From Escherichia coli (GTDB lineage Bacteria; Pseudomonadota; Gammaproteobacteria; Enterobacterales; Enterobacteriaceae): a stretch of DNA of 64,000 bases. The notes beneath the pieces were generated by a model. It worked only from the letters and a program-made list of their open reading frames with translations, was not told the DNA's origin and did not search any database. The stretch lies in assembly GCF_003334385.1 (NCBI RefSeq), contig NZ_QOWN01000006.1. The stretch is one strand, 5' to 3'. Position 1 is the first letter of the stretch; each line of letters starts with the position of its first letter. Both the position numbers and the translations under genes were made by a program. Of the stretch, positions 11,213 to 11,607 are shown piece after piece.

Positions 11213-11345
11213 CAATATTTTCCTCCCGCGCTAAAGATCACATAATCTTAACAAGAATGTTAAAAAACGCTGGACTCAGACAGTAGAGTGTGTGTTATGG
11301 TTGACTATAAAGTCAGCGAAGGAAATGCTTCTGGCTTTTAACAGA

Positions 11346-11449
11346 TAAAAAGAGACCGAACACGATTCCTGTATTCGGTCCAGGGAAATGGCTCTTGGGA
11401 GAGAGCCGTGCGCTAAAAGTTGGCATTAATGCAGGCTTAGTTGCCTTGC
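11346..11449 (-). ncRNA. sdsR: RpoS-dependent small RNA SdsR (RyeB)
   Basis: Minus strand reads GCAAGGCAACTAAGCCTGCATTAATGCCAACTTTTAGCGCACGGCTCTCTCCCAAGAGCC...GGTCTCTTTTT, ending in a hairpin plus U-run; matches the SdsR sequence as I recall it, in the expected pphA-yebY intergenic position. Confidence 0.75.
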
Positions 11450-11540
11450 CCTTTAAGAATAGATGACGACGCCAGGTTTTCCAGTTTGCGTGCAAAATGG
11501 TCAATAAAAAGCGTGGTGGTCATCAGCTGAAATGTTAAAA

Positions 11541-11578
11541 ACCGCCCGTTCTGGTGAAAGAACTGAGGCGGTTTTTTT
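11541..11578. terminator. Bidirectional hairpin/terminator between the ryeA region and the yebY 3' end
   Basis: aaaaaccgcc...ggcggttttttt, GC stem flanked by an A-run and a T-run, 30 bp downstream of the yebY stop. Confidence 0.5.
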
Positions 11579-11607
11579 ATTGGAAATCAAAAGGCTATTT
11601 TAGGTAA

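Follow-up and report, generated by a model that had tools for sequence, protein, structure and literature searches.

The SdsR/RyeA antisense small RNA pair of Escherichia coli: coordinates, promoters and a phage attachment site at the locus

Results

Identification of the locus

The window, i.e., the whole 64,000-nt stretch of Escherichia coli DNA that was analysed, carried the sdsR/ryeA (ryeB/sraC) locus between the genes pphA (10556–11212, minus strand) and yebY (11608–11949, minus strand), as mapped from the RefSeq annotation of E. coli K-12 MG1655. Positions 9743–13243 of the window corresponded to NC_000913.3 1,921,500–1,925,000 (MG1655) with 0 mismatches over 3.5 kb. The minus strand encoded SdsR (RyeB, b4433), which occupied 11348–11449 (102 nt) according to the RACE ends published in PMC6610125 and 11347–11450 according to RefSeq. 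The plus strand encoded RyeA (SraC, b4432), an RNA of ~270 nt whose RefSeq ncRNA feature mapped exactly to 11309–11580.

Both assignments were confirmed by an Rfam scan of the whole window. The SdsR_RyeB model (RF00111) matched 11347–11446 of the minus strand over its full length (model positions 1–100) with 114.4 bits against a gathering threshold of 38 (E 1.8e-21). The SraC_RyeA model (RF00101) matched 11343–11487 of the plus strand, also over its full length (1–145), with 175.1 bits against a threshold of 37 (E 2.9e-40). Both partners of the pair, as the type VIII toxin-antitoxin class asks, were annotated non-coding RNAs with RNA-family matches at one locus. Three other Rfam matches in the window exceeded their thresholds: MicL (46684–46991, minus strand, 381.9 bits), C0465 (60982–61059, plus strand, 111.6 bits) and ES036/CssrF (42706–42748, plus strand, 45.5 bits).

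A sequence-only reading of the same DNA had proposed a fully overlapping SdsR/RyeA pair in the pphA-yebY spacer. The proposal was borne out by the MG1655 annotation and by both family models, the features being far beyond chance, and the alignment to annotated E. coli sdsR/ryeA that had been suggested as a check gave exact identity to MG1655. The SdsR sequence quoted there was found on the minus strand from 11449 as GCAAGGCAAC...GGTCTCTTTT(T), with the terminal hairpin and the U-run. Of the interval assigned to SdsR, 11346–11449, the start coincided with the mapped start (PMC6610125), while 11346 was 1 nt beyond the quoted sequence. The claim that the longer RyeA covers SdsR was correct as well, since SdsR lay wholly inside RyeA at RyeA positions 40–141.

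The only listed open reading frame of at least 30 codons entirely within the spacer, a 63-aa frame at 11313–11504 of the minus strand, was rejected as coding. Its start was upstream of the SdsR start site, so the frame is not contained in the SdsR transcript.

Based on the identity to the curated MG1655 annotation and on the matches to both Rfam models, it was concluded that the locus is almost certainly the E. coli K-12 sdsR/ryeA with the published SdsR-RyeA antagonism, which was the best explanation as a whole. No contrary evidence was met. The pair is already curated (MG1655, Rfam) and mechanistically characterised, and its observation here, although correct, adds nothing new in itself. The sRNA pair was recognised from sequence alone, with all features at or within 1–2 nt of the positions given in that reading, and the case serves as a positive control.

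The sdsR promoter and the SdsR transcript

The SdsR start has been mapped by primer extension and RACE to 11449 (MG1655 position 1,923,206), 1 nt inside the older annotation, and the SdsR 3' ends by RACE to +100 to +102, corresponding to 11350–11348 (Choi et al. 2019, PMC6610125). The minus strand upstream of 11449 read TCTATTCTTAAAG and contained the sigma-S signature TCTATTCTTAA. By mapping the primers of the CTCGAG mutant (PMC6610125) on the window, the sdsR -10 element was localised to 11456–11462 of the minus strand, comprising TATTCT (11461–11456) and the sigma-S hallmark C at -13 (11462). A sigma-S -10 element was what the sequence-only reading had advised to look for upstream of 11449. 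The replacement of TATTCT by CTCGAG abolishes the sdsR promoter (PMC6610125). The -35 element TGGAAA was located at 11478–11483 of the minus strand, and the 16-bp spacer of the sdsR promoter has been noted in PMC3333887. The promoter combined cytosines at -13 and -8 with an A/T-rich discriminator and the TGGAAA -35 element at a 16-nt spacer, and these sigma-S selectivity features are listed by Fröhlich et al. (PMC3333887).

The conservation of the locus was assessed with 120 loci gathered by an SdsR-core pattern from a one-genome-per-species set of Enterobacterales, of which the 108 with full flanks were analysed. The mean identity to the window was 93% for SdsR, 82% for the extended -10 region of the sdsR promoter and ~40% for the RyeA-specific parts. 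Among 104 distinct enterobacterial homologues, the promoter positions -13C, -12T, -11A and -7T were invariant and -8C was present in 97%; T-34, G-33 and G-32 of the -35 element were 100% conserved. The sdsR gene was located downstream of yebY on the same strand, and a yebY homologue was found 245–303 nt away in nearly all of the 108 loci.

The intrinsic terminator of SdsR was identified at 11347–11381 of the minus strand by a terminator scan and folding, with an 11-bp stem (11353–11381) and a five-U run (11347–11351). The whole SdsR folded with -34.8 kcal/mol (z = -4.05), and the minimum-energy fold reproduced the three helices. Compensatory changes were recorded among the 104 homologues in helices 1 and 3 (pairs 74–92, 75–91 and 77–89), the pair 77–89 occurring as TA, TG, AT and CG; helix 2 was uninformative for covariation, as it was fixed by the search pattern.

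The ryeA promoter and the RyeA terminator

The primary starts of RyeA have been mapped to three adjacent sites, 11307–11309 (MG1655 1,923,064–1,923,066), the most downstream of which is the annotated 5' end 11309, and its 3' ends to +261 to +270, i.e., 11569–11578, by 3' RACE (PMC6610125). The flanks of the mutant primers mapped on the window placed the extended -10 element of ryeA at 11293–11301 of the plus strand, where TG (11293–11294) and T are followed by TATGGT (11296–11301). The change of this TATGGT to CTCGAG is the published ryeA promoter knockout (PMC6610125). A possible -35-like element, TGGACT, was assigned by sequence to 11271–11276 of the plus strand at a 19-nt spacer; the CTGGAC was conserved in the E. 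coli-type promoters of other genera. The -10 elements of the two face-to-face promoters lay at 11296–11301 (plus strand) and 11456–11461 (minus strand), and the starts were 140–142 bp apart.

The sequence-only reading had connected RyeA with a TTGACT box at 11301. A single copy of TTGACT was indeed present at 11301–11306 of the plus strand; however, it was not the RyeA -35 element. The box overlapped the last base of the -10 element and the discriminator, and its position relative to the -10 element and the starts, together with folding, identified it as the left arm of an inverted repeat, TGACTATAAAGTCA (11302–11315), spanning the RyeA start. Since TTGACT is located between the ryeA -10 element and the start, it cannot be a -35 element of that promoter.

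It was considered whether the box could be the -35 element of another promoter, which would start RyeA near 11336–11344. TTGACT matches TTGACA in 5/6 positions, and minor RyeA 5' ends have been detected at +33/+36 (11341/11344), where such a promoter would predict them. These ends also agree with the start of the Rfam seed, 11343, at which the older "SraC" annotation begins as well. However, the AATGCT hexamer found 17 nt downstream of the box is a 3/6 match to the -10 consensus, no plus-strand promoter was detected there in a consensus scan, and the published ryeA knockout was obtained by mutating TATGGT at 11296–11301. Moreover, the minor ends were mostly recovered without RppH treatment (PMC6610125), which points to processing and not to a second promoter. 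The TTGACT-based promoter is effectively refuted, and we regard it as extremely improbable.

The intrinsic terminator of RyeA was found at 11537–11578 of the plus strand by folding and from the 3' RACE ends. It consisted of a hairpin at 11537–11576 and a T7 run at 11572–11578, in agreement with the hairpin/T-run that had been indicated at 11541–11578 in the sequence-only reading. The folding energy of the hairpin was about -20 to -20.6 kcal/mol on the plus strand (z -4.5 to -5.0) and -19.8 kcal/mol on the minus strand (z -5.3), where it is followed by UUUUU; the hairpin was flanked by an A-run and a T-run. Since folding is equally good on both strands, the RyeA terminator probably acts in both directions, and transcription of yobA-yebZ-yebY would likewise stop there, immediately upstream of the sdsR promoter.

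A phage attachment site in the SdsR terminator

The sdsR/ryeA locus was detected at at least 95% identity in 5,426/5,426 complete E. coli genomes and was split into two places in ~236 of them.

Such a split was analysed in E. coli 2003-3014 (NZ_CP101292.1, loci L122 and L124), where a 46.7-kb lambdoid prophage was inserted between pphA and sdsR. The prophage carried genes of an integrase, an excisionase, recET and ralR as well as the effector gene nleG7, and the integrase gene ended ~130 nt from sdsR. Both prophage junctions carried the core AAAAA[G/A]AGACCGAA[C/T]ACGATTCCTGT[A/T]TTCG, which corresponds to 11347–11377 of the window. The phage attachment core (attB) is therefore located in the SdsR terminator. 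The host and phage variants switched between 11361 and 11373, which places the strand exchange in the loop of the terminator hairpin. A phage-type junction was recorded in 228/5,426 complete E. coli genomes (4.2%). This location agrees with that in Salmonella, where a phage is reported to attach within the last 23 bp of ryeB and the 5' part of ryeA is changed in lysogens (cited in PMC7380047).

Several further observations were made on these genomes. One of the 5,664 matching places was on a plasmid. Most RefSeq E. coli genomes had no feature annotated under the ryeA/sdsR match; their automatic annotation thus leaves out the pair, whereas both genes are marked in the MG1655 record. On the pphA side of the prophage in the lysogen (L124, about 5569–7121; NZ_CP101292.1), the native ryeA promoter was retained and pointed into the prophage end; nleG7 was located ~800 nt downstream of this displaced promoter in the same orientation.

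A natural disruption of sdsR/ryeA was found in E. coli FDAARGOS_944 (NZ_CP065613.1, L123 4176–4966), which carries IS1A inside sdsR. The sequence of window positions 11424–11440 was present on both sides of this IS1A, an unusually long apparent target duplication.

Variable antisense promoters

The antisense promoters of the enterobacterial loci were compared as raw sequences anchored at the SdsR 3' end, as the MAFFT columns were gappy and merged two unrelated types. The E. coli-type promoter was CTGGAC...TGTTATGGT. The promoter of the Salmonella/E. albertii type, AATGTTAA...TGTGGTATAAC, was unrelated to that of K-12 and ~35 nt farther from sdsR, a greater distance that has been reported by Fröhlich et al. 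(PMC3333887).

In many loci, part of the terminator arm was present as a further copy (AAGACCGAATAC), together with TTCG-centred repeats, two or three per locus, at ~40, 50 and 60 nt from the core (among others, loci L003, L005, L011, L031, L087 and L113). The repeats were found 40–65 nt from the SdsR 3' end/core, and 61/69 intervals between them were 10 or 11 nt. These arm elements co-occurred with an integrase gene ending 66–137 nt from sdsR, and an integrase gene was adjacent in 31/~108 species loci. In the E. coli lysogen, the Salmonella-type promoter (TGTGATATAAC), the arm copy and the TTCG repeats all belonged to the stretch of phage DNA that separates the integrase stop codon from sdsR. 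The window itself contained no TTCG repeats, no partial terminator-arm copy and no Salmonella-type promoter.

Since the phased TTCG repeats co-occur with an adjacent tyrosine integrase gene, they are most likely putative arm-type integrase sites. Two other candidate readings of the repeats, CsrA-type GGA motifs and a GlpR-like tandem operator, were dropped, as the repeats were on phage DNA beside integrase genes. A search of the integrase-linked arms for a second terminator on the SdsR strand revealed weak hairpins only.

A probable integrase relic at the ryeA promoter

In the loci having both an E. coli-type promoter and an integrase gene, the promoter was inside the last codons of the integrase (...GHKNLTMTKKYLDARGAEYVMV*). 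The integrase 3' ends of four such loci were compared with the 64-kb window by blastn, and 11239–11302 was the best hit for three of the four (E 1e-5, 1e-4 and 8e-4). An nhmmer search of the window with a profile of the four integrase 3' ends gave an E of 0.0075. The local alignment of 11238–11302 with integrase DNA scored 26 compared to 8.6 ± 1.2 for 500 shuffles (z = 15). Graded relics were also observed in integrase-less genomes, with lengths of 106, 96, 86, 74, 64 (E. coli) and down to 42 nt, and their left boundary was common to many genera. From these data, 11238–11302 of the plus strand (64 nt), which contains the ryeA promoter, is probably what remains of a tyrosine integrase gene, namely its last ~21 codons.

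The integrase-relic match is short. The integrase 3' end of L034, one of the four subtype sequences, had no hit at the K-12 relic, and neither did a broad integrase 3'-end profile of 17 sequences, mostly of the Serratia and Yersinia types; the relic claim hence draws on one integrase subtype, on synteny and on the graded series. As to its direction, the matched segment of the integrase gene includes the codons of the conserved catalytic His...Tyr motif, which no member of the family lacks, therefore the non-coding host copy is the derived one. Read against the integrase codons, the -35-like CTGGAC would come from the L-D codons of the catalytic Y-L-D motif and the -10 TATGGT from the C-terminal V-M-V codons.

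The neighbouring genes were also phage-like. The product of pphA was a NinI-like phosphatase (phrog_246, E 6.7e-88) that was 49–64% identical to phage phosphatases, and yebW matched the phage family phrog_1092 (E 3.7e-13); the two genes span 10364–11212. The orientation of pphA relative to the integrase was that expected of a nin-region gene. The G+C content of 10100–11500 was slightly low (0.45–0.48 compared to 0.51–0.55), which is not decisive. Taken together, pphA, yebW and the integrase relic point to the remains of an old prophage in the region from rsmF to sdsR. No second attachment core, which would mark the far end of an ancient prophage, was found in the 64-kb window at up to 3 mismatches.

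It was proposed that the ryeA promoter is exapted phage DNA: 11238–11302 would be an integrase relic, pphA and yebW would derive from the same decayed lambdoid prophage, and the phages that split ryeA would bring their own outward promoter, so that lysogeny rewires the SdsR/RyeA balance. We consider this proposal to be slightly favoured by the present data.

The same observations may be read in another way, namely that RyeA is largely a by-product not itself under selection, transcribed across sdsR by chance from a promoter in residual phage DNA (an integrase 3' end or attachment arm). The low conservation of the RyeA-specific sequence (only ~40%) fits with this, as do the existence of at least two unrelated promoter types that are mosaic within genera, the carriage of one type on phage DNA adjoining an integrase gene and the alignment of the K-12-type promoter with integrase codons; a similar view on the dispensability of SraC was held by Fröhlich et al. 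(PMC3333887). However, CTGGAC...TGTTATGGTT was kept in many integrase-less genera with a common relic boundary, which suggests maintenance, and where phages displace the native promoter, they supply another one of the same direction. In addition, ryeA promoter mutants show altered SdsR timing and altered tolC and pphA expression (PMC6610125). RyeA as a by-product was judged to be rather improbable.

Discussion

The identity of the locus, its coordinates, promoter and terminator motifs and conservation were determined here, and the sigma dependence, duplex cleavage, interference and read-through come from published experiments. According to these, SdsR is a ~102-nt sRNA that sigma-S RNA polymerase transcribes in stationary-phase or stressed cells, and with Hfq it base-pairs with and represses mRNAs such as tolC, mutS and yhcB, and ompD in Salmonella. 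RyeA is a ~270-nt RNA of the other strand with a sigma-70-dependent extended -10 promoter, covering all of SdsR and acting mainly as an SdsR antagonist. The sigma-S holoenzyme makes SdsR and the sigma-70 holoenzyme makes RyeA in vitro (PMC6610125).

The antagonism follows two routes. By one, SdsR and RyeA undergo mutual RNase III-assisted degradation; among the dsRNA clusters generated by RNase III in vivo and captured with p19, ryeA-ryeB ranked first in abundance in stationary-phase E. coli. By the other, polymerases from the convergent promoters, ~140 bp apart, interfere with each other, so that ryeA transcription lowers sdsR transcription. The net result is a sharp switch, with RyeA present in growing cells and SdsR in stationary phase. 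Part of the sdsR transcription passes its terminator and supplies most of the pphA mRNA. Transcriptional interference, mutual degradation and the pphA read-through from sdsR have all been reported in PMC6610125. On the other hand, Fröhlich et al. observed that SdsR was increased only ~1.5-fold on deletion of the sraC promoter and considered SdsR to be the primary product of the locus (PMC3333887), hence the strength of the RyeA effect differs between studies.

The sequence-only reading had also mentioned toxin-antitoxin-like behaviour, and in reviews the pair is indeed the first type VIII toxin-antitoxin system, in which overexpressed SdsR is toxic through yhcB repression (PMC8610362). The locus would then be a true module, with SdsR arresting or killing cells via yhcB and RyeA existing to neutralise it. 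Cell death upon ectopic SdsR expression and its rescue by RyeA overexpression were described by Choi et al. 2018, as summarised in PMC8610362. RyeA is the less stable partner, with a half-life shorter than that of SdsR (PMC6610125), and the locus is on a phage attachment site beside phage-derived DNA, like many toxin-antitoxin loci. [quoted passage not shown] The RyeA-specific sequence and promoters show low conservation, and lysogeny has replaced them in 4.2% of E. coli genomes with no obvious lethality; the natural IS1 disruption of sdsR exists, and no addiction or phage-defence phenotype was found in the literature consulted. The ~1.5-fold effect of SraC also makes the "antitoxin" label stronger than some of the data. 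A true toxin-antitoxin module appears unlikely on balance, though it deserves more credit than the by-product reading, and the sdsR/ryeA locus with RyeA as a regulatory antagonist of SdsR is retained here as the main interpretation.

The ryeA promoter seems to derive from integrase/attachment-arm DNA of phages, and ~4% of E. coli genomes have exchanged it through lysogeny, which would explain why the core SdsR is conserved and RyeA is variable. Strain-specific differences in SdsR timing would also be predicted in lysogens, many of which are EHEC-like with effector phages. The observations on the attachment site and the relic are a modest evolutionary footnote, of relevance to sRNA evolution.

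Comparison with known systems

E. coli K-12 sdsR (b4433)/ryeA (b4432), RF00111/RF00101, has the same sequence, position, strands, promoters and terminators as the window. Coordinate conventions alone vary, the RefSeq 5' end of SdsR being 1 nt upstream of the mapped start.

A related system is the Salmonella SdsR/SraC pair with the site of phage PhiW104 (Balbontin et al. 2008). Its SdsR is almost identical and has the same sigma-S promoter (PMC3333887), whereas the antisense promoter (TGGTATAAG) differs from that of K-12 in being of unrelated sequence and ~35 nt farther from sdsR. PhiW104 attaches in the last 23 bp and its lysogeny replaces the 5' part of RyeA, as cited in PMC7380047; the junction architecture in E. 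coli lysogens was the same.

Type I antisense pairs (Sib/Ibs, Rdl/Ldr, Sok/hok) resemble SdsR/RyeA in that an antisense RNA encoded in cis counteracts what the other strand produces and that the duplexes are RNase III substrates. However, the toxin mRNA of a type I pair encodes a toxic peptide, whereas SdsR, the "toxin" of this pair, is a regulatory RNA that encodes no protein, which is why the pair is classed separately as "type VIII". The Campylobacter CJnc190/CJnc180 pair follows the same logic, as a trans-acting sRNA is antagonised by its antisense partner via RNase III (PMC8687705), but the sequences and organisms are unrelated to those of SdsR/RyeA.

Finally, the attachment site resembles those in tRNA and tmRNA genes, where the core likewise covers the 3'-terminal part of a gene for a small structured RNA, dyad symmetry is used and the phage copy restores the gene. 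It differs in its target, an sRNA terminator hairpin that also lies within another gene, the antisense one; integration keeps SdsR and splits RyeA.
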